Shown here piece after piece: positions 7,294 to 56,505 of a stretch of 64,000 nucleotides of DNA (its first letter is position 1; each line of letters opens with the position of its first letter). The position numbers and the translations under genes are program-made. The notes beneath the pieces are model-generated. The model worked only from the letters and a program-made list of their open reading frames with translations, made no database searches and was not told the origin of the DNA. Where the stretch lies: contig CAZPWM010000003.1 in NCBI GenBank assembly GCA_964590575.1, forward strand, positions 4,587 through 68,586, written 5' to 3'. The stretch comes from an uncultured archaeon (GTDB taxonomy: Archaea > Asgardarchaeota > Thorarchaeia > Thorarchaeales > Thorarchaeaceae).

Positions 7294-7641
7294 CTAGAGT
7301 GCAGCGCGAATCTTCTCTAGTTCTTGTTTCAATTCATCCCCAACATGCGAAAGCCACCTTTCTAGAGTGTCACATCCATAATCATCACAGTGAGCACAGG
7401 TTTCTACACCCCGTGCACTTGCGCAAGATTTGACACTACACTCACTACAGAACTTAAATTTGGGTTCAGCATCAACCTTACATCCCACACAGTTGATTTC
7501 CTCTTCTGAAATTGGATAATCAGGACTTCCCCATTCGGCAGCCTGTTTCTTACGTAATTCATCATCATCGGTTTTCCAAGCGACATGAGCTGGACACACT
7601 GCACAGTCAAGTCCACAATACGCACGCATGCTCTCGGTCAT
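7294..7641 (-). CDS. DUF3795 family Cys-rich protein
   Basis: YCGLDCAVCP, CVGC, CSECSVKSC, CAHCDDYGC. ATG at 7641. Confidence 0.88.
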   Translation of the reverse strand: MTESMRAYCGLDCAVCPAHVAWKTDDDELRKKQAAEWGSPDYPISEEEINCVGCKVDAEPKFKFCSECSVKSCASARGVETCAHCDDYGCDTLERWLSHVGDELKQELEKIRAAL

Positions 7642-7679
7642 GTTTAGCCACAGTGTCCAAGTGGAATATAAGCACAACA

Positions 7680-8170
7680 GATACCCGAAACTACTTCTAA
7701 GGCAACGTTTGGAAAAACTGCAGTTCAAGCAATCCTTTTCTGACCTGAATCTCAATGTGAGTGAATCACAACTTCACGAAACTTCTGTGTTCCACCCCTC
7801 TCTTGCCAGTGTCACCACCTTTCGAAACCCAGGGGATTTCAAGATTAGCAAGAGCATTGTCAACGTTCATCGGGATGGGATCCCTCCTGCAGACCTGGCT
7901 TCCTTCTCCTGTATTGATGTTGGTTCATCACTTCCAACTGCAGTGAGCTTTTCCACAGTTCTTACCACGGCGAGGTCATTATCACTCATCTTGGAGTCGT
8001 CACCGAAACCAAGAAGGTTCCCTTGAACAGAGTGAACAGCCGCGGACTCTCTGGAACTTGATGTCGGTTCCTTTTTTGAGAGTAGGAACTTCCCTCTGAA
8101 AGTGCTCCATCGGGCTTTCAGTCGCTGACTTCGGGTCTTCTCTAAGACATTTGTCAGCATACTTAGTTCC
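7680..8170 (-). ncRNA. candidate large structured ncRNA, long member of an unknown family (RNA-1); 5' end may extend to about 8300
   Basis: At least eight hairpins or junctions, two GUGA (GNRA) tetraloops, G-U wobbles mostly on the minus strand, and colinear blocks shared with 2713-2922. The overlapping ORF has no recognisable protein features. Confidence 0.6.
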
Positions 8171-8388
8171 TTCATAGTATTCTTTGTTGCTGGATGCATA
8201 TTAGCCCATACTTTTTTCTCCTCCCCGTCTTACTATTCCCCCACTATCGTCACCAGTATTAGCATTCAATGACTTAGTCACGAATCTTGATAACTCTCGT
8301 GAATCCTCAATCCTTTTATTCTTAATTCACTAGACTCACCTGTTGGTGAATTCCAACAGAATTCTTTCGTATCTATGAGATGGTACAT

Positions 8389-8955
8389 ATGTCTGAAGAT
8401 GCAGTCTGGAAAAATGCAATTGAGTATACGCAATTTCTGAAAGGTGCGCGTGAGAATGTAGAAATCATGAAAGCGAGATATAATGATCTTCAGATAACTG
8501 AACAAGATCTTGAACATCTTCGCAGCCTTCAGAATAACCTCCGGATACTTGTCATTGGCACTGACCGGTGTAATGATACCGCTGGCAATGTACCTATTCT
8601 AGCCAAAATGACTGCAATCTCATCCAAATTGCAGTTACGTATTCTTGACAGTGATGCCAATGCAACATATCATCAGCAGTTCAAGGTCAACGGAAAGAGG
8701 AAGACCCCTGTTGTACTCTTTCTAAATGAAAAGCATGAAGAGCTGTGTCGATGGGTCGAAAGGTCAAATGCTGCTTACAAGGTAATCAATGAGGGGACGA
8801 ATCCATCCTTAGAGCGCCGACAGAAGGAGCTAAAGACACTATACAGCGACCCGGAGATTCAACGACAGAGCGTGAAGGAGTTCTTGGGTCTAATACTTAG
8901 GGCCGATTATATTCTAGGAAGAGCTAAACATGGTACACCCTCAAGGGAAGGCTGA
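8389..8955 (+). CDS. thioredoxin-fold protein (Thioredoxin_9-like)
   Basis: ILVIGTDRCND..GNVP.LAK, RKTPVVLFL, RWVER. Confidence 0.8.
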   Translation: MSEDAVWKNAIEYTQFLKGARENVEIMKARYNDLQITEQDLEHLRSLQNNLRILVIGTDRCNDTAGNVPILAKMTAISSKLQLRILDSDANATYHQQFKVNGKRKTPVVLFLNEKHEELCRWVERSNAAYKVINEGTNPSLERRQKELKTLYSDPEIQRQSVKEFLGLILRADYILGRAKHGTPSREG

Positions 8956-9586
8956 CTGGACTAACGATGAACATGTTCAACGAATGGCGAAATCCTACAA
9001 TGTGAGATATGATGACGAATTCTGGAGAGCATTTGAATCTCTCACAGGTAGAAAAACCAGATCTATTGTTGCTGACTTTGGATGTGGACCTGGATTACTG
9101 CTCGTTGATCTTGCGAACCGATTCCACGCTCACACTGCTATAGCGATTGATGAGAGTGAGCAAATGCTTGTTCTTGCAGAAACTCATCTCAAAGAGCGAA
9201 CTGACCTTAAATCTATTCAGATTCAACAAGTGAACTTCGATGCTGATAGGATGCAGGTTGATCCTGATAGTATCGACTTTGCGTTCTCAGGGTTTATGCT
9301 TCATGAGGTTGCTAATCCAGGTGATTTTGTATCAAAAGTCTACAATCTTGTCAAATCTGGTGGTATCTATGTTGTTTATGATTATGTATCTGGAAACGAA
9401 GAGATGTTCGTCAAAAAAATGAGTGGACAAAGGATGAGTGCGGAACAAGCTCGAAAGCGATACCCACATATGTGTAAGCACTCTGCAGACGATATCATAG
9501 CGATATTAGAAACCTCTGGGTTCTCAGACTGTCGCTCGCTGATCATTGGTGATATTCGCGCAGTTGTAGTAGGACTAAAGAGGTAA
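8930..9586 (+). CDS. class I SAM-dependent methyltransferase
   Basis: VADFGCGPG, AIDESEQML, FMLHEV, VKSGG. Confidence 0.88.
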   Translation: MVHPQGKADWTNDEHVQRMAKSYNVRYDDEFWRAFESLTGRKTRSIVADFGCGPGLLLVDLANRFHAHTAIAIDESEQMLVLAETHLKERTDLKSIQIQQVNFDADRMQVDPDSIDFAFSGFMLHEVANPGDFVSKVYNLVKSGGIYVVYDYVSGNEEMFVKKMSGQRMSAEQARKRYPHMCKHSADDIIAILETSGFSDCRSLIIGDIRAVVVGLKR

Positions 9587-13664: not shown

Positions 13665-16580
13665 ATGGGCATGCCAAGGAACTCGAAGCAATTCAAGACA
13701 AAGGGGAACCGAGCATACGGTCTCTCTTATGCCCTCAGCGCACTCAGAGCGAATCCCTTCAGAGCTCTTAGTCTAGCTCTAACATTGAGTCTTGGAATCA
13801 GTCTCTTTGCATCAACGATGGTCTGGGGCGACACTGGTATCTTCGTAAGTATCTATGATTATCTAGAAAACAGCGCGTATCAGATAAATGTGGACTCAGA
13901 ACCCGGAGTTCCTGAAGCTCTCGGAATGGCTGAGGCTTATATGAACCAGAACCAATTCGTAGAGGAAACCCACCGTATCAACTCCACAGTTGGCTTGGTC
14001 TGGGGTACGAATATATCCGATAGTATAGAATATGACATAGATGATCCAAATTATAGTTACGGGATAAAGGACTGCAGAGTAGTATTCGTGGATAATGAGT
14101 TTCTGAACAAGACTGCTTTCGAGTTTGCGATTGAAGGTGCATTCGAGCTCGGTGCTGGCGAGATTATAGTATCTCGAATGTTTGTAGGGTATGTAGACCA
14201 AGTTTTTGATATCACTCTTCAAATTAATGACACAATAGATGTTGAACTACTGACTGGAGATGTAACTTATTCACCGTCAGGTGACATGCAGTCATTACCA
14301 CTGAGTATGCTAGACCGCATGAGTATGACCAATCTCAGGATTGTCGGCATTTTTGACCTTCGAACATTTGGTTCAATAATCGAGCGGGCTCTTCCCTCAT
14401 ACGAGGATGGGCGGGCTAATTGGAATAATACTAACCTACGATATGATGTGATGGGGCTTCGAGATAGCATCTTCATGCGCGAAGACGCAATCCCTCAAGG
14501 AGCACTCTCGGAGAATGGGTTCTTTGGTGAAACAATGCTCGTCAGATTTTCAGCAGGTGCACTAGCAGATGATGGTCCACAGAATGTCGCGACTAATCTC
14601 TTTGAGTTGACAATCCGGACAGACGAGTTATACAACATCACGTGGTCTGGCTATGATAAGATTTGGGAACTCCAAGGTGTTGTCAATACCTACGTTTCAA
14701 CTTTGGACCTCTCTATTCTCGCCTTACCAATCATCCTACTAGCTCTGTTCTTTTCGGTATTTGCTGCTGACACTTTCATGGCACCTCGTAATGTTGAGGC
14801 AGGTATTATTCGGTCTAAGGGTGCAAGTTACTCACAAGTATCATCTATATTCTTGTGGGAATCCGCGGTGATTGCAGTACTCTCGATAGGGCTTGGTATT
14901 TTGTTTAGCGTACTCTTTGCACCATTAATTCCATCAACTACGAGTTTTATGACCTTTGACTGGGATATCTACACATTCTATCTGTCAAATACGGTTGTCA
15001 GTTTCAACACAATTATTCGAGCGATTGGTCTTACTGTCCTTCCCAGTCTATTATTCATCCTCTACCTAGCAAGAAGAGCAGCTTCAGTTGAAATCAGTCT
15101 TTCATTAGCTGAAGTGGCTCAGGATTCAACTGAACAGTCAGAAGCACATGGGTTCACAATTGGAGCATCCATCTTCCTTCTAGCATTGGTTATAGTCATG
15201 ATGCATATTCTCCCCCGACACCCAGTTCTTTTTTTGATGGAACTTGGGATGGGGACTGCTGCTTGGTTCTTCATAGCTTACAACGGGTCACGGATTTCTC
15301 GAGTGGGTCTTGCAAAGGTGTCTGAGAAATTATCGTTTGTGCTGGGCCAGAAGAATCTAATATCCGCCGGATACCTGAAGATGCGAAAGGGAAGAATCAT
15401 CCCGCTCATGGTTGTTCTTGCTCTCACCATGTCATCGACCATCGCATTTGCTGTACAATCTGAGAGTCTCAGAGTTGATCTAGACCGTGAAGTTACATAT
15501 GCTCTAGGTTCTGATCTTCGTATAGATTGTACTATTCGTGAGTTCAATTTTAGCTACGACTTAGAAACCTATGATGGTGTCAATAATTCGATGCCAGTAT
15601 TGAGGACTTGGGCAAGAGTGGGTCCTGATGAGTTGAGTATCGAAGCGTTATATCCCCTCGAGTATGCAGCGATGGGTAAGTTTGACCAATCAAGTTTCAG
15701 AGGTCAATCGCCCGAATCTGTTCTATCGGCGCTGGCAGCTGTGCCCAATGGTATAGTCCTAAGTGAATACCATGCAAATCGATGGAACAAGACGGTAGGA
15801 TCAAGCCTCACTATGGAGATGAGTGGAGTCGGTTCAAACCAACTCGTTGAATTCCAGGTCGTTGGAGTGGTTTTTAGTGCGCCTGGTTTTGGCTATGCTT
15901 CACATACTGATATTCCATACAGCCCTCTTGGAGCTGGTTTTGGATTCTACTCTGGCTATAGTGGATTTGCACTGACAAACATTGAGTTCATTGAAGGGGT
16001 CATTCAGAGACACGAAACCACGCTCTTCATGGTTGACCTTGAGGACGATGCTAATCGAACACTCTTATTTGAAGAGATTTCAGCTTTATCAGGGGTAAAC
16101 CCAAACACACCCGAGGAGTTCGACCTGAAATCCTACTCTCTCCAGACAGCACTCTTTCTGAACACGGTCGAGGGTCTTTTCTCAATTGGTTTTGTTATGT
16201 CGCTGACCCTTAGTGTTTTTGCTCTCTCAATCTCACTGGGATCTGTTGTGAGAGAACGTCGCAAAGAATATGCTATCATGCGTGCAATTGGAGGGTCCAA
16301 AAAACAGATTGTTAGTATGGTCTTCTCGGAATTCTCAGGAGTAGTGTTCGCATCATTGGCACTTAGCTTGATTCTAGGTGCAGTTTTTGGGTATGTCATG
16401 GGCTTTCTACTGAATGTGATGAGTCCATTCTCTAGAACTTTGGCTGCAACTATTGCATTTCCCTTTAACTTCCTTGCGATTGTTCTGTTTATCGAGATAT
16501 TGACAATGATTATCGGGTCTTACCTGCCAGCAAGAGAAGCCGCGAGGACAGACCCCGCTGTTGTACTAAGAAATATGTGA
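13665..16580 (+). CDS. FtsX/MacB-like ABC permease (two FtsX domains)
   Basis: Multiple TMs, IRSKGAS, ERRKEYAIMRAIGG, PAREAARTDPAVVLR. Confidence 0.9.
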   Translation: MGMPRNSKQFKTKGNRAYGLSYALSALRANPFRALSLALTLSLGISLFASTMVWGDTGIFVSIYDYLENSAYQINVDSEPGVPEALGMAEAYMNQNQFVEETHRINSTVGLVWGTNISDSIEYDIDDPNYSYGIKDCRVVFVDNEFLNKTAFEFAIEGAFELGAGEIIVSRMFVGYVDQVFDITLQINDTIDVELLTGDVTYSPSGDMQSLPLSMLDRMSMTNLRIVGIFDLRTFGSIIERALPSYEDGRANWNNTNLRYDVMGLRDSIFMREDAIPQGALSENGFFGETMLVRFSAGALADDGPQNVATNLFELTIRTDELYNITWSGYDKIWELQGVVNTYVSTLDLSILALPIILLALFFSVFAADTFMAPRNVEAGIIRSKGASYSQVSSIFLWESAVIAVLSIGLGILFSVLFAPLIPSTTSFMTFDWDIYTFYLSNTVVSFNTIIRAIGLTVLPSLLFILYLARRAASVEISLSLAEVAQDSTEQSEAHGFTIGASIFLLALVIVMMHILPRHPVLFLMELGMGTAAWFFIAYNGSRISRVGLAKVSEKLSFVLGQKNLISAGYLKMRKGRIIPLMVVLALTMSSTIAFAVQSESLRVDLDREVTYALGSDLRIDCTIREFNFSYDLETYDGVNNSMPVLRTWARVGPDELSIEALYPLEYAAMGKFDQSSFRGQSPESVLSALAAVPNGIVLSEYHANRWNKTVGSSLTMEMSGVGSNQLVEFQVVGVVFSAPGFGYASHTDIPYSPLGAGFGFYSGYSGFALTNIEFIEGVIQRHETTLFMVDLEDDANRTLLFEEISALSGVNPNTPEEFDLKSYSLQTALFLNTVEGLFSIGFVMSLTLSVFALSISLGSVVRERRKEYAIMRAIGGSKKQIVSMVFSEFSGVVFASLALSLILGAVFGYVMGFLLNVMSPFSRTLAATIAFPFNFLAIVLFIEILTMIIGSYLPAREAARTDPAVVLRNM

Positions 16581-16592
16581 GGTGATAAGAAG

Positions 16593-19517
16593 ATGGCTAA
16601 GAAAAAACAGAAGAACATCCTCAAGGGCAACCCTCTCTGGTCACTTGGGTATGCCATCACCTCAATAAAGACTTACAAAGTTCGTAACATGGGCATTGCT
16701 CTGGTCCTTGCAATCAGTGTAGCGATTCCAATGACCATCTTTGCTTGGACATACACTGGGTCTCGTCTGGCTGTCGAAACATATTTTGAAGATAACACTT
16801 ACCAGATTATTATTCAAAATGCTCCCGGAAATTATGATTACTCACACCTCTTTGACGCACAAGACCTTGTGATGAGCAGTCCGTACTCTGAGTATGCACA
16901 TATCACTCCCAGTACTGTTGGTATTCTCAGGATCGATGGAGTCACGCCTGAGTGGGATGCTTATTCCATTTACGCTCAAAACTATGGTCAAGGCATCAAA
17001 GATTGTCGAGTTATCATAGTCAATAATGAGATTCTTGATGTCTGGTCACGAGAGATAAAGTTCACAGGAAATACCACACTTCAACCTGGAGAAGTTATGG
17101 TGTCGCAGTGGTTTATCGAAACTGCAGAGCAAATGATGAACAGAACCCTCGGTGTCGATTTGGACCTTGAGATTGGTTCAGAGATTGGCATTGATGTTCT
17201 TCGCACTTACTACTCTCCTGATGAGGGAGTCCCCTTTGATCCATTATTACTCCATCGCCAGATTGTTCGAAATCTTACAATCGCAGGTATTTATGATGTG
17301 GGGGGTTCATCAATTGTTGTACAACCATTCGAATCCTATTTCCGAACGAACTATGGTCTCGTTGAACCTCCTATCTATGTCCTTGGCATGTTTGACTCAG
17401 TGTTGATGTTGGCTGATGAGCTTGGAGCAGAATCCGTTGATACAATCGCCAACAGTGGATTCTTCTCACCTGCCGAGTTTGTGCGCGGGTCTGTTGATGG
17501 TCTTATACAAAGTGGAGTGACATTTGCTGCACAAAATCTCCGCAATCTAAAGATACAGATTGGAGAGAGCGATGAGCTTCTAAGTGTGATTGGTCTAGAC
17601 AATATCGACAGTCTTCAAACCCATATCAGTACCTATCTTCAAAGTCAAGTATTGATTATCTTGGCTTTGCCCATTATGATTATGAGCTTGATGCTCACCA
17701 TCTTCACATCAGAAACGTCTGTGTCTCAGAGAAAAGGTGAGATTAGTGCACTTCGTGCAAAAGGCGCATCATTCAATCAGATATTTGCCGCATTCATTTG
17801 GGAGTCAGTATTTCTTTCAATCCTTGGCCTGATAATTGGACTTGCATTGGCTGTATTAGCTGCTCCATTGATGGGATCATCAACTGGACTCTTTTCATTT
17901 GATCCAGTTCTGTATAGTGGATTTGTGGCAAAGATGACCCTTCCTATACAATCACTAGTTTTGTCTGCGACTATCGCATTCTTCCTTCCTGCAGCTTACC
18001 TGTTGCATGTTGCTCGCAGGATTGATGTTGCAGAGATTGGACAACCTACTATGCGGATGACCTATGAGATACCCGAGGAAACGAAAATCGGATTCTATGT
18101 TCTGGGTCTAGGAGGAACATTGGCAGTGCTTCTTATAGTCCCGGTTCTGTTCAACCCTGTCGGTCAGACAGCGTTCGTTGAGATAATCATAGCAACATCA
18201 ATACTATTCCTTTCATCATATCTCGGGTCAAGAGCTATGCGATTAGTCACCGCTAATGCATCTGAGAGAGTTGGCCGCCTGATTGGTGAGAAGAAACTGT
18301 ATATGACTCAGAGTTTACGACGGCGAAAGGGACAATTCATTCCGCTCCTCGTGATTCTGACCTTGACACTTACGACTACAACAATGATGCTCATCCAAAC
18401 CGCAAGTTTCGAAACCACCCTTGCGAATGAAGCCAATTATGCACTAGGATGCGATATTCGGGTTGAGGGTCCTGAACACATGTTAGACTGGATTGATACT
18501 CTCGAAGGATATGAAGGAGTTGTCAGTGCGACTCCAGTCATCGAAACCCTTTCATATATCGGAGCAGAAGCTTTCTATCTTGAAGGGGTAAATGCAGGAG
18601 TGTATAGCGCAATAGGGGATTTCAGATCATCGAGTTTCGTAAGTGGGACTCCTGAGCAAGTCCTGACAGCCCTAGAGAATACCGAGAATGGCATCATCAT
18701 AAGCCAGTTCTATTCTGAAACCTGGAATGTTACTATCGGCGATTCATTGACGATTAGAGTTCTCTCTTCAAGCGGTAGTAATACTACTGCGTTCGAAATA
18801 GTTGGTGTTATGAAAAGTGCACCTGGTTTCGGAATGGCATCAACTCAAGATCTTGCTGGTATCCCATTTGGTTCGTACTTTGGTTTCCAACCTGGTCGAG
18901 GAGGCTTTGCATTAGTCAACATCGATTACCTGTCTGCGACAACTGAGTTTACGTCAACAAGGCTTTTCTTTGTAGGAACAACATCTCTTGCTGATGCATC
19001 AGATCTGATCAGTTTTGTCAGTGGAATTCCATACGCTGTAGTCTATACACCTGACACAATAGAGTTTGGTTCAGACACGGCCACAGGTCTCTTCCTTGCT
19101 GGATTAGAAGGTCTCACGATGATTGCGTTCATCATGTGTGCTACTATGGGTATTGCATCAATTGCATTATTCCTAGGTTCTGCAGTAATGGAACGTGAAC
19201 CTGAGTACGCACTGTTTCGCGCAATAGGTGGGACCAAAAGACAGGTGATATCTCTAGTGTTTGGTGAATTTGCAGGAAGTGTACTTGCGGCTGTGTTGAT
19301 CAGTCTGGGCCTTGGAGTATTATTTGGCTACACAATGACATTATTGACTTTTGGAATATCCTCTGTATGGCCAATTCTGGCAAAGATTCTGACCTATCCA
19401 TTGATGGTCATAGGGTTTACTGTAGCATTGGAATGTATCGCTATGGTTGCTGCATGTTACTTCCCAGCTAGAAGGGCTGGGAGCACAAATCCAGCTGAAG
19501 TATTGAGAAATATGTGA
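16593..19517 (+). CDS. FtsX/MacB-like ABC permease, paralog of the upstream gene
   Basis: LRAKGAS, EREPEYALFRAIGG, PARRAGSTNPAEVLR. Shares GIKDCRV and APGFG.AS with the upstream permease. GAGGTGAT RBS. Confidence 0.9.
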   Translation: MAKKKQKNILKGNPLWSLGYAITSIKTYKVRNMGIALVLAISVAIPMTIFAWTYTGSRLAVETYFEDNTYQIIIQNAPGNYDYSHLFDAQDLVMSSPYSEYAHITPSTVGILRIDGVTPEWDAYSIYAQNYGQGIKDCRVIIVNNEILDVWSREIKFTGNTTLQPGEVMVSQWFIETAEQMMNRTLGVDLDLEIGSEIGIDVLRTYYSPDEGVPFDPLLLHRQIVRNLTIAGIYDVGGSSIVVQPFESYFRTNYGLVEPPIYVLGMFDSVLMLADELGAESVDTIANSGFFSPAEFVRGSVDGLIQSGVTFAAQNLRNLKIQIGESDELLSVIGLDNIDSLQTHISTYLQSQVLIILALPIMIMSLMLTIFTSETSVSQRKGEISALRAKGASFNQIFAAFIWESVFLSILGLIIGLALAVLAAPLMGSSTGLFSFDPVLYSGFVAKMTLPIQSLVLSATIAFFLPAAYLLHVARRIDVAEIGQPTMRMTYEIPEETKIGFYVLGLGGTLAVLLIVPVLFNPVGQTAFVEIIIATSILFLSSYLGSRAMRLVTANASERVGRLIGEKKLYMTQSLRRRKGQFIPLLVILTLTLTTTTMMLIQTASFETTLANEANYALGCDIRVEGPEHMLDWIDTLEGYEGVVSATPVIETLSYIGAEAFYLEGVNAGVYSAIGDFRSSSFVSGTPEQVLTALENTENGIIISQFYSETWNVTIGDSLTIRVLSSSGSNTTAFEIVGVMKSAPGFGMASTQDLAGIPFGSYFGFQPGRGGFALVNIDYLSATTEFTSTRLFFVGTTSLADASDLISFVSGIPYAVVYTPDTIEFGSDTATGLFLAGLEGLTMIAFIMCATMGIASIALFLGSAVMEREPEYALFRAIGGTKRQVISLVFGEFAGSVLAAVLISLGLGVLFGYTMTLLTFGISSVWPILAKILTYPLMVIGFTVALECIAMVAACYFPARRAGSTNPAEVLRNM

Positions 19518-19527
19518 GGTAATTGAA

Positions 19528-43007: not shown

Positions 43008-43085
43008 GGGGCCGTAGTCTAGCATGGATAAGGCACCAGCCTCCGGAGTTGGTAATCCCCGGTTCGAATCCGGGCGGTCCCGCCA
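43008..43085 (+). tRNA. tRNA-Arg(CCG), CCA encoded
   Basis: Acceptor stem GGGGCCG/CGGTCCC, anticodon arm CCAGC-CTCCGGA-GTTGG, T arm CCCGG-TTCGAAT-CCGGG. Confidence 0.96.
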
Positions 43086-43442: not shown

Positions 43443-43520
43443 GGGGCCGTAGTCTAGCCTGGATAAGGCACCAGCCTGCGGAGTTGGTAATCCCCGGTTC
43501 GAATCCGGGCGGTCCCGCCA
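43443..43520 (+). tRNA. tRNA-Arg(GCG), CCA encoded
   Basis: Same cloverleaf as 43008, with anticodon loop CT-GCG-GA. Confidence 0.96.
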
Positions 43521-55809: not shown

Positions 55810-56505
55810 TCAGTTTAGCTCGTATCTGAATTCGTTTCCTGCGGCCCAGTAGGCTTCTAGAACCTGATTTGGTTGCATAATGACTGGAACTGTTCCCTGA
55901 CCAAATTGCTGAACATATTTGGAGAATTTCTTTGGGTCCTCCTCAGACGACCATCTCATGGGTATTCCAATTCGTGGTTTTGCATCAATACACAGACTGA
56001 CTGCATCTTTCACTGGAAAGACACCATCACCACCAACTGGTACTATAAGGACATCCATATCGAGTTGCTCGAATGGACCTCGGACCACCGAGTCACCAAG
56101 GTAGCCCACTTTCATATCTCCAATCTCAATATATAATCCAAGATTTTCAATACGTCCACCTTCTCCCTCATCAATTCTTGACAGAGAATAGGGTGTAATT
56201 TTCACATCTGGGATCTCATAGGGGATCTCAGGTTGGAGAACGTGCAGTAACCACGGTTTTGCTCCTTGTTCTGAAACTTTGTTAACTGTTCCTTGATTTC
56301 CTAGGAACCATGCTTTTGAATCGACTGCGATGGTTGCTGCATTACCAACCGCATCGTCTGATTGATTCGTTGCTATGACAATTCTAGCACTGAAGTCGTT
56401 TGGAACAACAGATTCACCATCCCAAATTCCAGGATTCAGAAGAATCGTCGTTTCATTATATTCGAGTGCGAATGAAGTCCTTCCAAAGTACACTATTTTG
56501 AGCAA
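55810..56505 (-). CDS. UPF0173-like MBL-fold protein lacking the His ligands
   Basis: ILLNPG, ATNQSDDA in place of THxHxDH, GYLGDS, VPVGG, IPMRW. TTG start near 56505. Confidence 0.8.
   Translation of the reverse strand: MLKIVYFGRTSFALEYNETTILLNPGIWDGESVVPNDFSARIVIATNQSDDAVGNAATIAVDSKAWFLGNQGTVNKVSEQGAKPWLLHVLQPEIPYEIPDVKITPYSLSRIDEGEGGRIENLGLYIEIGDMKVGYLGDSVVRGPFEQLDMDVLIVPVGGDGVFPVKDAVSLCIDAKPRIGIPMRWSSEEDPKKFSKYVQQFGQGTVPVIMQPNQVLEAYWAAGNEFRYELN

Follow-up and report, generated by a model that had tools for sequence, protein, structure and literature searches.

Characterised TnpB omega RNAs are roughly 150-250 nt long and have a variable guide of ~16-20 nt directly 3' of the scaffold, whose target follows a transposon-adjacent motif. 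The guide of such an RNA corresponds to the DNA just outside the right end of its element, and bacterial palindrome-associated transposable elements (PATEs), which "often encode omega RNAs", have been proposed to use TnpB in trans (Meers et al. 2023, bioRxiv 10.1101/2023.03.14.532601). In Asgard archaea, the "Cas1H-Asgard" TnpB groups have a GTTCACTCA motif downstream of tnpB, with a hypervariable spacer-like stretch upstream of the motif, and their repeat-flanked loci are linked to Cas1 homologues (Altae-Tran et al., PNAS 2023, PMC10691335). The aloposons of Heimdallarchaeia, for which no TnpB is mentioned, combine tandem genes of 3,000-6,000 aa with a ParA-like set (Wu et al. 2022, PMC8813620). 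Here, we describe an element in a 64-kb stretch of archaeal DNA (contig CAZPWM010000003.1, positions 4,587 to 68,586, 64,000 nt; hereafter the window), located at window positions 7740-8307. We read it, with a probability of roughly three in four, as a non-autonomous mini derivative of a TnpB-carrying Thorarchaeota mobile element with a guide module of the omega-RNA type. This kind of element, non-autonomous and carrying only an omega RNA, is already known; its unusual features are the size of the RNA, the flanking repeats of 8-22 bp, a reading frame that stays open even in the mini-elements (minis), and a 1,770-aa orphan partner in the full-length elements.

The window is affiliated with Thorarchaeota by its best matches and by neighbouring genes (DUF763, PriL). 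A divergent pair of host genes borders the region, one encoding a DUF3795 protein (7641-7294, minus strand) and the other a Thioredoxin_9 protein (8380-8955, plus strand). Through the adjacent DUF763 gene we collected 33 related loci; L-numbers such as L002 and L003 denote the loci or copies fetched from relatives. The site is empty in 12 of the 33 (L003-L012, L030 and L031), in which sequence matching ~8304-8362 continues almost directly into sequence matching ~7693-7739, with the junction at 7738/7739 in seven of the 12. In a multiple alignment, the empty site of L003, L012, L008 and L010 reads AATAAAAGGATTG followed immediately by CTTGACC, with a single copy of the direct repeat. Because the empty sites hold one copy of AAAAGGATTG, whereas two copies border the insert in the window and in L002, the segment 7740-8307 is an insertion, 568 bp long, that duplicated 10 bp of its target. 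At least 12 related genomes without an insert at this site have intact DUF3795 and thioredoxin genes, and the flank from 7739 onward is host sequence. Within the insert, the left 85 nt align with no other copy, including the one at the same site in L002, while the core from 8222 to 7741 (minus strand) is a member of a repeat family.

This family is widespread in one lineage. A 20-mer from the end of the open reading frame (ORF) within the core, GGAGGGATCCCATCCCGATG, has 63 exact matches among the GTDB species-representative genomes, all of them in metagenome-assembled genomes (MAGs) of Thorarchaeota where the title names a lineage, about ten being labelled just "uncultured archaeon". Copies reach about a dozen per genome, occur in many unrelated contexts, and are homologous to the window from roughly 8219/8133 to 7757/7735. 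In all of them, family conservation ends at AGGTYA(G/T), which lies at 7741/7740 in the window, and beyond this point every copy differs. The "long copy" of the initial annotation implied a second copy in the same stretch; none was found in the 64-kb window by blastn (word size 7), tblastx or an nhmmer profile of 46 copies, all of which matched only 8211-7729.

When all copies are translated in the frame of the ORF, the frame extends upstream in about 20 of them into a protein of ~560 aa, passing through "...CWKCGSKGTRPKQNYFHCPSCGYSINADxNGSxNIAARML...". This protein matches Pfam Cas12f1-like_TNB (2.6e-13), NCBIfam guided_TnpB (1.2e-21) and the TnpB structure 9nzp in the PDB (2.6e-7), its TNB zinc ribbon is present, and its RuvC-I and RuvC-III aspartates align to 9nzp; it is, by these matches, a predicted TnpB/Cas12f-like RNA-guided nuclease. 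The recognised TnpB domains end ~105 aa before the stop. Residues 446-561 of TnpB align by tblastn to 8205-7870 of the window with 59% identity, and because the same frame continues into the ~560-aa TnpB in about 20 copies, the window ORF is the orphaned C-terminal tail of tnpB. The window element is without nearly all of tnpB, retaining a promoter-like leader, the last ~100 tnpB codons and the right end.

What this remnant preserves is a large folded RNA. From an alignment of 51 copies, RNAalifold derives a consensus of 101 pairs in 18 helices, 43 of the pairs showing compensatory double changes. Paired cells amount to 96.7%, compared with 41-46% when the partners are slid by 1-3 columns, and double-change cells to 402, compared with 40-101 in the slid controls; no column shuffle out of 500 reached any of the observed measures. 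Since G-U cells number 652 against 44 A-C cells, the RNA lies on the minus strand, that of tnpB, where pairing is 96.7% compared with 84.8% on the plus strand, in agreement with the bias towards G-U on minus and A-C on plus pointed out in the initial annotation. The best-supported helices are 8014-8004/7999-7989 with its GUGA loop (10 of 11 pairs covary) and 7844-7836/7828-7820 (8 of 9), together with 8028-8025/8020-8017, 7938-7934/7923-7919, 7854-7847/7807-7800 and 7819-7816/7811-7808. Further conserved pairings join 8169-8165 to 8090-8086, 8083-8077 to 8052-8046, 8071-8067 to 8057-8053 and 8045-8039 to 7971-7965, and two more hairpins (~8148-8135 and one after CUGAAAGCCC) covary by eye, blurred by length variation. 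The conserved structure extends 128 nt beyond the stop of the ORF, and the long-range helices 7958-7954/7789-7785 and 7899-7897/7796-7794 tie the ORF part to the part after the stop.

The initial annotation was right to propose that the minus strand encodes a large structured RNA of several domains that has GNRA loops and overlaps an ORF; the extent is 8169-7741 (429 nt) rather than 8300-7680, and some pairings differ. Five of its eight motifs coincide with helices of the family consensus: the GCUGAC/GUCAGC stem (8158-8153 with 8129-8124), the GUCUU..AAGAC hairpin enclosed by it, which covaries by eye, the GUGA-tetraloop hairpin at 8014-7989, a 5-bp hairpin (7884-7880/7876-7872) that is invariant and hence uninformative, and the three-way junction at 7854-7800, whose helices (7854-7847/7807-7800, 7844-7836/7828-7820 and the GGUG-GUGA-CACU hairpin 7819-7816/7811-7808) comprise 14 covarying pairs. 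The remaining three, hairpins at 8121-8096, 8089-8067 and 8057-8017, are alternative pairings not conserved in the family, their nucleotides being used in other conserved pairings.

Of the 101 consensus pairs, 96 form in the window copy itself. Relative to the copy at the same site in L002, it has double compensatory changes at 10 pairs and wobble changes at 8; another 6 pairs are open in one copy or in both. Because the two copies keep their pairing by compensation while the adjacent 85 nt have diverged beyond alignment, the comparison suggests that the fold has been under purifying selection since the insertion. Among the Rfam covariance models run on the window, only two tRNAs reach the gathering thresholds, with just chance hits of the snoRNA or miRNA type at E<=10, and no family, including RNase P, group I and II introns and the HEARO/IscB omega RNA, matches the fold.

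In full-length relatives, the fold starts ~300 nt before the tnpB stop, crosses the stop and ends at the right boundary of the element, and the window retains exactly that segment. It is because the fold begins in the 3' end of tnpB, runs across the stop and ends at the right end that we assign the RNA to the omega-RNA type. In addition, the sequence just past the right end is unique to each copy, as expected of a guide derived from the flank.

The minis, which measure ~480-720 bp, resemble miniature inverted-repeat transposable elements (MITEs) and PATEs in being short, multicopy and without autonomous genes, with common ends and target duplications. They have their right end in common with full-length copies, while their left ends are poorly conserved and range from 55 to 230 nt; mutual homology of the S-type minis starts 44-60 nt upstream of the fold. 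Four 5' sequences (tnpB itself, the S leader, the X leader and that of the L064/L065 type) have their junction a few nt ahead of GGACUAGG, where the first helix and the fold begin (8169 in the window). Because four unlike sequences meet the family just there, the nuclease-less derivatives preserve exactly the RNA unit. Complete leaders are present in 24 minis, of which 20 have a TATA-like heptamer at -33 to -36 from the fold and 23 an ATG at -6; TAATAT of the window and CAAATAC of L074 and L093 fall narrowly outside the TATA-like pattern. The S and X leaders are unrelated, yet the placement of box and ATG holds in both, and the 18 full-length copies listed all lack both features at these positions and have GTG there instead.

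As the box and the ATG stand at fixed distances in minis only, the minis would be self-transcribed and supplied with TnpB in trans. We therefore envisage the following sequence of events as a model. The TATA-like box of the element (8203-8198) would drive transcription of the RNA from near the ATG at 8175, past the right end and into ~20 nt of flank, which by analogy with TnpB omega RNAs could serve as the guide. A TnpB encoded by a full-length element elsewhere in the genome would bind this RNA and be directed to the unoccupied version of the site, where repair from the occupied copy might restore or spread the element, a form of homing.

Several observations weigh against this interpretation. 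No common motif resembling a transposon-adjacent motif (TAM) was found by reading the sequences beside eight insertion sites with defined boundaries, and the 8-22-bp flanking repeats do not fit the peel-and-paste transposition of IS200/IS605 elements. Apart from the tail, there is no tnpB within the 64-kb window, and the canonical RuvC-II glutamate of the family TnpB did not align to 9nzp, so that its nuclease activity is putative. The guide-proximal terminal hairpin is 78.8% paired in a hand-drawn two-helix model, a moderate support, RNAalifold applied to the last 70 nt predicts no structure, and a 9-nt deletion affects this terminal region in the window and in L002. Finally, single-sequence folding is not significant: minimum free energies compared with dinucleotide shuffles give z-scores of -0.58 (minus) and +0.40 (plus) for 7680-8300, and of -1.04 and +0.47 for 8169-7741. 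The initial annotation had named a z-score near zero as an argument against its fold, and a value near zero is what we found; the covariation shows that the test is not decisive, and by itself it would have wrongly dismissed the fold. Support for the fold beyond chance is covariation only.

The full-length elements bear on how the family moves. Next to every intact full-length tnpB whose upstream sequence is long enough, at a distance of ~250-400 nt, lies a divergently transcribed orphan gene for a protein of 1,750-1,800 aa (L097:4501-9756; also L035, L040, L043, L052, L066, L071, L091 and L098), and it is the sole conserved neighbour in the seven full-length loci with tnpB intact and sufficient sequence upstream. 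Relatives of this giant protein (P0001-P0053) come from Thorarchaeota-like MAGs only. Its N-terminal 1,449 aa have no Pfam match, the whole protein has no match in NCBIfam or the PDB by sequence or profile, and a PD-(D/E)xK-like motif (GRADLVL...VIDLKTK) is seen by eye. It is a candidate transposase or partner of the family TnpB. No Cas1 or known transposase was found beside the full-length copies examined, and no Y1 HUH TnpA, which autonomous IS200/IS605 members carry, beside the seven loci, although one may be present elsewhere in the genome.

The module of giant gene and tnpB is bounded by 22-bp repeats in L097 (2264-2285 and 9930-9951) and by 10-11-bp repeats in L098 (1432-1442 and 8864-8874); the whole modules span ~7.4-7.7 kb, each beside a tRNA-like gene. 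The one in L097 (9930 to ~10070) shows an acceptor stem, D arm, T arm and CCA, apparently with introns; neither ARAGORN nor Rfam called the tRNA-like genes of the two loci, Rfam reporting just an unrelated tRNA at L097 1881-1982. Direct repeats also flank other copies, with 11 bp at L060, 9 bp at L072, where the repeat coincides with the boundary of homology between L072 and L083, 9 bp at L093, and 8 bp at the young X-type minis L056 and L088, the 10-bp repeat of the window and L002 being verified against empty sites. Membership of IS200/IS605, whose elements insert beside a short target motif and leave no target-site duplication, was considered and rejected, as direct repeats flank the inserts.

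Regarding the element ends, terminal inverted repeats of the window copy were sought and none was convincing. The only end-to-end likeness found is that the left start AGGATTCACG and AATAGTAAGAC (8237-8227) are similar, in direct orientation, to right-end motifs, AATAGTAAGAC resembling AAATGTAAGAT on reading the sequences. By the same kind of reading, a motif AATGTA[ACT]GA has three locations: the right end; the S leader and the tnpB-proximal region, at the beginning of each; and, in inverted orientation, the far end together with the left ends of the X type. The X-type minis also carry the far-end motif TCTTACATTT, which is found beyond the giant gene in L097, and the GTTCACTCA motif stands ~33 nt from the right end in this family.

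Taken jointly, these features allow a bolder interpretation, which we regard as speculative and rather unlikely, namely that the family is a distinct Asgard transposon type and not an IS200/IS605 derivative, with satellites acting as self-transcribed bifunctional RNAs. Its module may be ~7.5 kb long and consist of the 1,770-aa orphan protein and TnpB, with variable duplications of 8-22 bp, often beside tRNA-type genes, and each satellite would combine a ~430-nt guide scaffold with a leaderless mRNA for the TnpB tail peptide, its frame held open by selection. The variable length of the duplications could arise if the RNA-guided nuclease itself makes staggered cuts that then receive the insertion.

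Turning to alternatives to the guide-RNA mini-element, the window copy could be an inert, decaying relic whose fold survives through youth or through homogenisation by other copies. There is no tnpB nearby, the TATA-like box is degenerate (TAATATG compared with CATATAC), 12 nt are deleted in one hairpin in addition to the 9 nt lost guide-proximally, and the first helix is altered from GGACUAGG to GGAACUAAG. Against this, the helix change is compensated (GAACU pairs with AGUUC), nearly all consensus pairs are kept, and the compensatory and wobble changes relative to L002 stand beside 85 nt that can no longer be aligned. We consider an inert relic quite improbable. In a weaker sense, the terminal deletion, the degenerate box and the lack of tnpB in view suggest that the window copy may be a weakened guide-RNA gene, and the 9-nt deletion may impair it as a guide RNA.

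The history of the site is relevant here. The inserts of the window and L002 are each other's closest relatives, with 81% identity and common derived deletions, whereas in both trees of the flanking genes the occupied L002 is sister to the empty L003 and the window lies on another branch. This patchy occupancy fits homing or repeated precise loss: an old insertion could have been lost precisely several times, or the occupied allele could have spread via recombination or homing.

A second alternative is that the functional product is a small protein of 102 aa (ATG at 8175 to the stop at 7867), RNA pairing being secondary. In its favour, gene finders call the ~100-aa ORF in more than 200 clusters, and of 222 homologues at E<=1e-3, most of the best 120 are predicted proteins of ~100 aa. 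The length of the tail segment is a multiple of 3 in 48 of the 51 copies, and in-frame stops are depleted, with 2 observed against 18.4 +/- 2.9 expected from column shuffling in the family, and 2 against 10.4 +/- 2.3 in the 29 minis alone, frames +1 and +2 showing no depletion. The ATG occupies the same position in two unrelated mini leaders, ~27 nt past the TATA-like box, which fits a leaderless mRNA. On the other hand, column entropies by codon position are 0.52/0.50/0.58, and because no third-position excess is seen, RNA-level constraint dominates over the ORF region. The 43 covarying pairs alter amino acids freely, as in helix 8014-7989, and the structure runs well past the stop, with helices linking the two sides. 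An AlphaFold2 model of the tail, built with 50 homologues, is unfolded but for one N-terminal helix (pLDDT 56.7, pTM 0.16), and neither the ORF nor the plus-strand ORF 7628-8026 has a Pfam match. The minis interleave with full-length copies, from which they could have inherited the open frame or received it by gene conversion; alternatively, the tail peptide may be translated. We hold a primarily protein-coding role to be very unlikely, and the ORF is a relic of the TnpB tail, predicted to be unfolded, its frame kept open in the family. It is not simply spurious, as originally annotated, being instead a detached tnpB tail whose frame is protected from stops.

Lastly, a host RNA acting in cis on DUF3795, or else a large ribozyme of RNase P type or similar, both raised in the initial annotation and suggested by a fold with GNRA loops and multi-helix architecture upstream of DUF3795 on the same strand, is extremely improbable, as the RNA is part of a mobile, multicopy insertion that most relatives lack here without damage to the DUF3795 and thioredoxin genes, its copies lie in unrelated contexts, several per genome, the TATA-like box that belongs to DUF3795 (7672-7663) is still present on the downstream side of the insert, and Rfam gives no match.

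Table 1. Parts of the inserted mini-element and its borders (window positions)
Feature	Position	Strand	Basis
Upstream direct-repeat copy AAAAGGATTG, target-site duplication	8308..8317	-	Empty-site comparison
Copy-specific left part of the insert, 85 nt	8223..8307	-	Missing from empty sites
Leader common to S-type minis: GTATGGGC, TATA-like TAATAT (8203-8198), ATG (8175-8173)	8170..8222	-	Mini homology
Structured RNA, omega-RNA-like scaffold, 429 nt, at least 18 helices	7741..8169	-	RNAalifold, 51 copies
110-aa ORF (102 aa from ATG 8175), detached C-terminal tail of tnpB	7867..8199	-	Frame continuation, tblastn
Right-end segment: GATTCACTCA (7767-7758; family consensus GTTCACTCA), terminus GATTCAGGTCA(G)	7741..7789	-	Family conservation
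Downstream direct-repeat copy AAAAGGATTG, start of presumed guide segment	7730..7739	-	Direct repeat and analogy
Presumed guide segment AAAAGGATTGCTTGAACTGC	7739 to ~7720	-	By analogy with TnpB omega RNAs

The surroundings of the element yielded further observations. The TATA-like element pointed out in the initial annotation lies outside the insert: it is a promoter-like box, CCTTTTATTC, preceding the Thioredoxin_9 gene at 8312-8321 on the plus strand and conserved in relatives without the insert, and is a likely host promoter element. The same box, as CTTATATTCC (7663-7672, minus strand), lies upstream of the divergent DUF3795 gene. The mini-element is inserted at the edge of the Thioredoxin_9 box, which the target duplication overlaps. 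Downstream, the Thioredoxin_9 ORF (8380-8955) overlaps the ORF of an S-adenosylmethionine (SAM)-methyltransferase (8930-9586) by 26 nt (8930-8955), which suggests an operon. Elsewhere in the window, two tRNA genes (43008-43082 and 43443-43517), 435 nt apart and 96% identical over 82 nt, differ in the anticodon region (CTCCGGAG and CTGCGGAG) and are probably tRNA-Arg isoacceptors from a recent duplication. A 67-nt direct repeat (16520-16586 and 19457-19523, 75% identity, 2.9 kb apart) has the common end GAAATATGTGAGGT and may represent a further small repeat family or the beginning that paralogous genes share; the adjoining 19425-19455 also matches 56312-56342.

If our reading of the mini-element holds, it assigns a function to a repeat that has been annotated hundreds of times in Thorarchaeota as a hypothetical protein of ~100 aa, and it gives an Asgard TnpB clade outside Rfam a large guide-RNA scaffold whose structure is backed by covariation. 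It would also place guide-RNA-only satellites with their own promoter-like box in archaea. Target duplications, a giant orphan gene as partner and a frame left open even in copies without the nuclease hint at an uncharacterised type of transposon as the carrier of this TnpB, with a bearing on the spread and domestication of RNA-guided nucleases near the archaeal-eukaryotic boundary.

Among the known systems, aloposons, like the Thorarchaeota family, are mobile modules centred on a giant orphan gene that is followed directly by a tRNA-type gene (here in L097 and L098), a resemblance only, and differ from it in that the family has a single 1,770-aa gene beside tnpB. The Cas1H-Asgard groups have the GTTCACTCA motif in common with it, a likeness by motif and not a clade assignment; unlike in those groups, the neighbour is here the ~1,770-aa protein and not Cas1, and the stretch upstream of GTTCACTCA is conserved and base-paired. 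The omega or right-end RNAs of TnpB (OMEGA, obligate mobile element-guided activity; ISDra2, ISGst) agree with the present RNA in lying on the tnpB strand, in starting within the 3' end of tnpB, crossing its stop and ending at the right boundary, in having a multi-helix scaffold with covariation, and in having a TnpB/Cas12f-like partner with a TNB zinc ribbon and the RuvC-I and RuvC-III aspartates. They differ in that the Thorarchaeota scaffold is ~430 nt long and overlaps the ORF by ~300 nt, equal to the ~105-aa tail past the TnpB domains, and in that this family, which has no Rfam counterpart, is without a visible TAM (eight sites), with 8-22-bp repeats and without a nearby Y1 TnpA. PATE-like IS200/IS605 derivatives are likewise short, multicopy and nuclease-less, consist of ends and a guide-RNA module, and presumably rely on TnpB in trans. 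Unlike PATEs, the Thorarchaeota minis are archaeal, have target-site duplications and possess their own TATA-like box and an open tail ORF, and to variable left ends they add at least three leader types, all of which join the RNA at one point.

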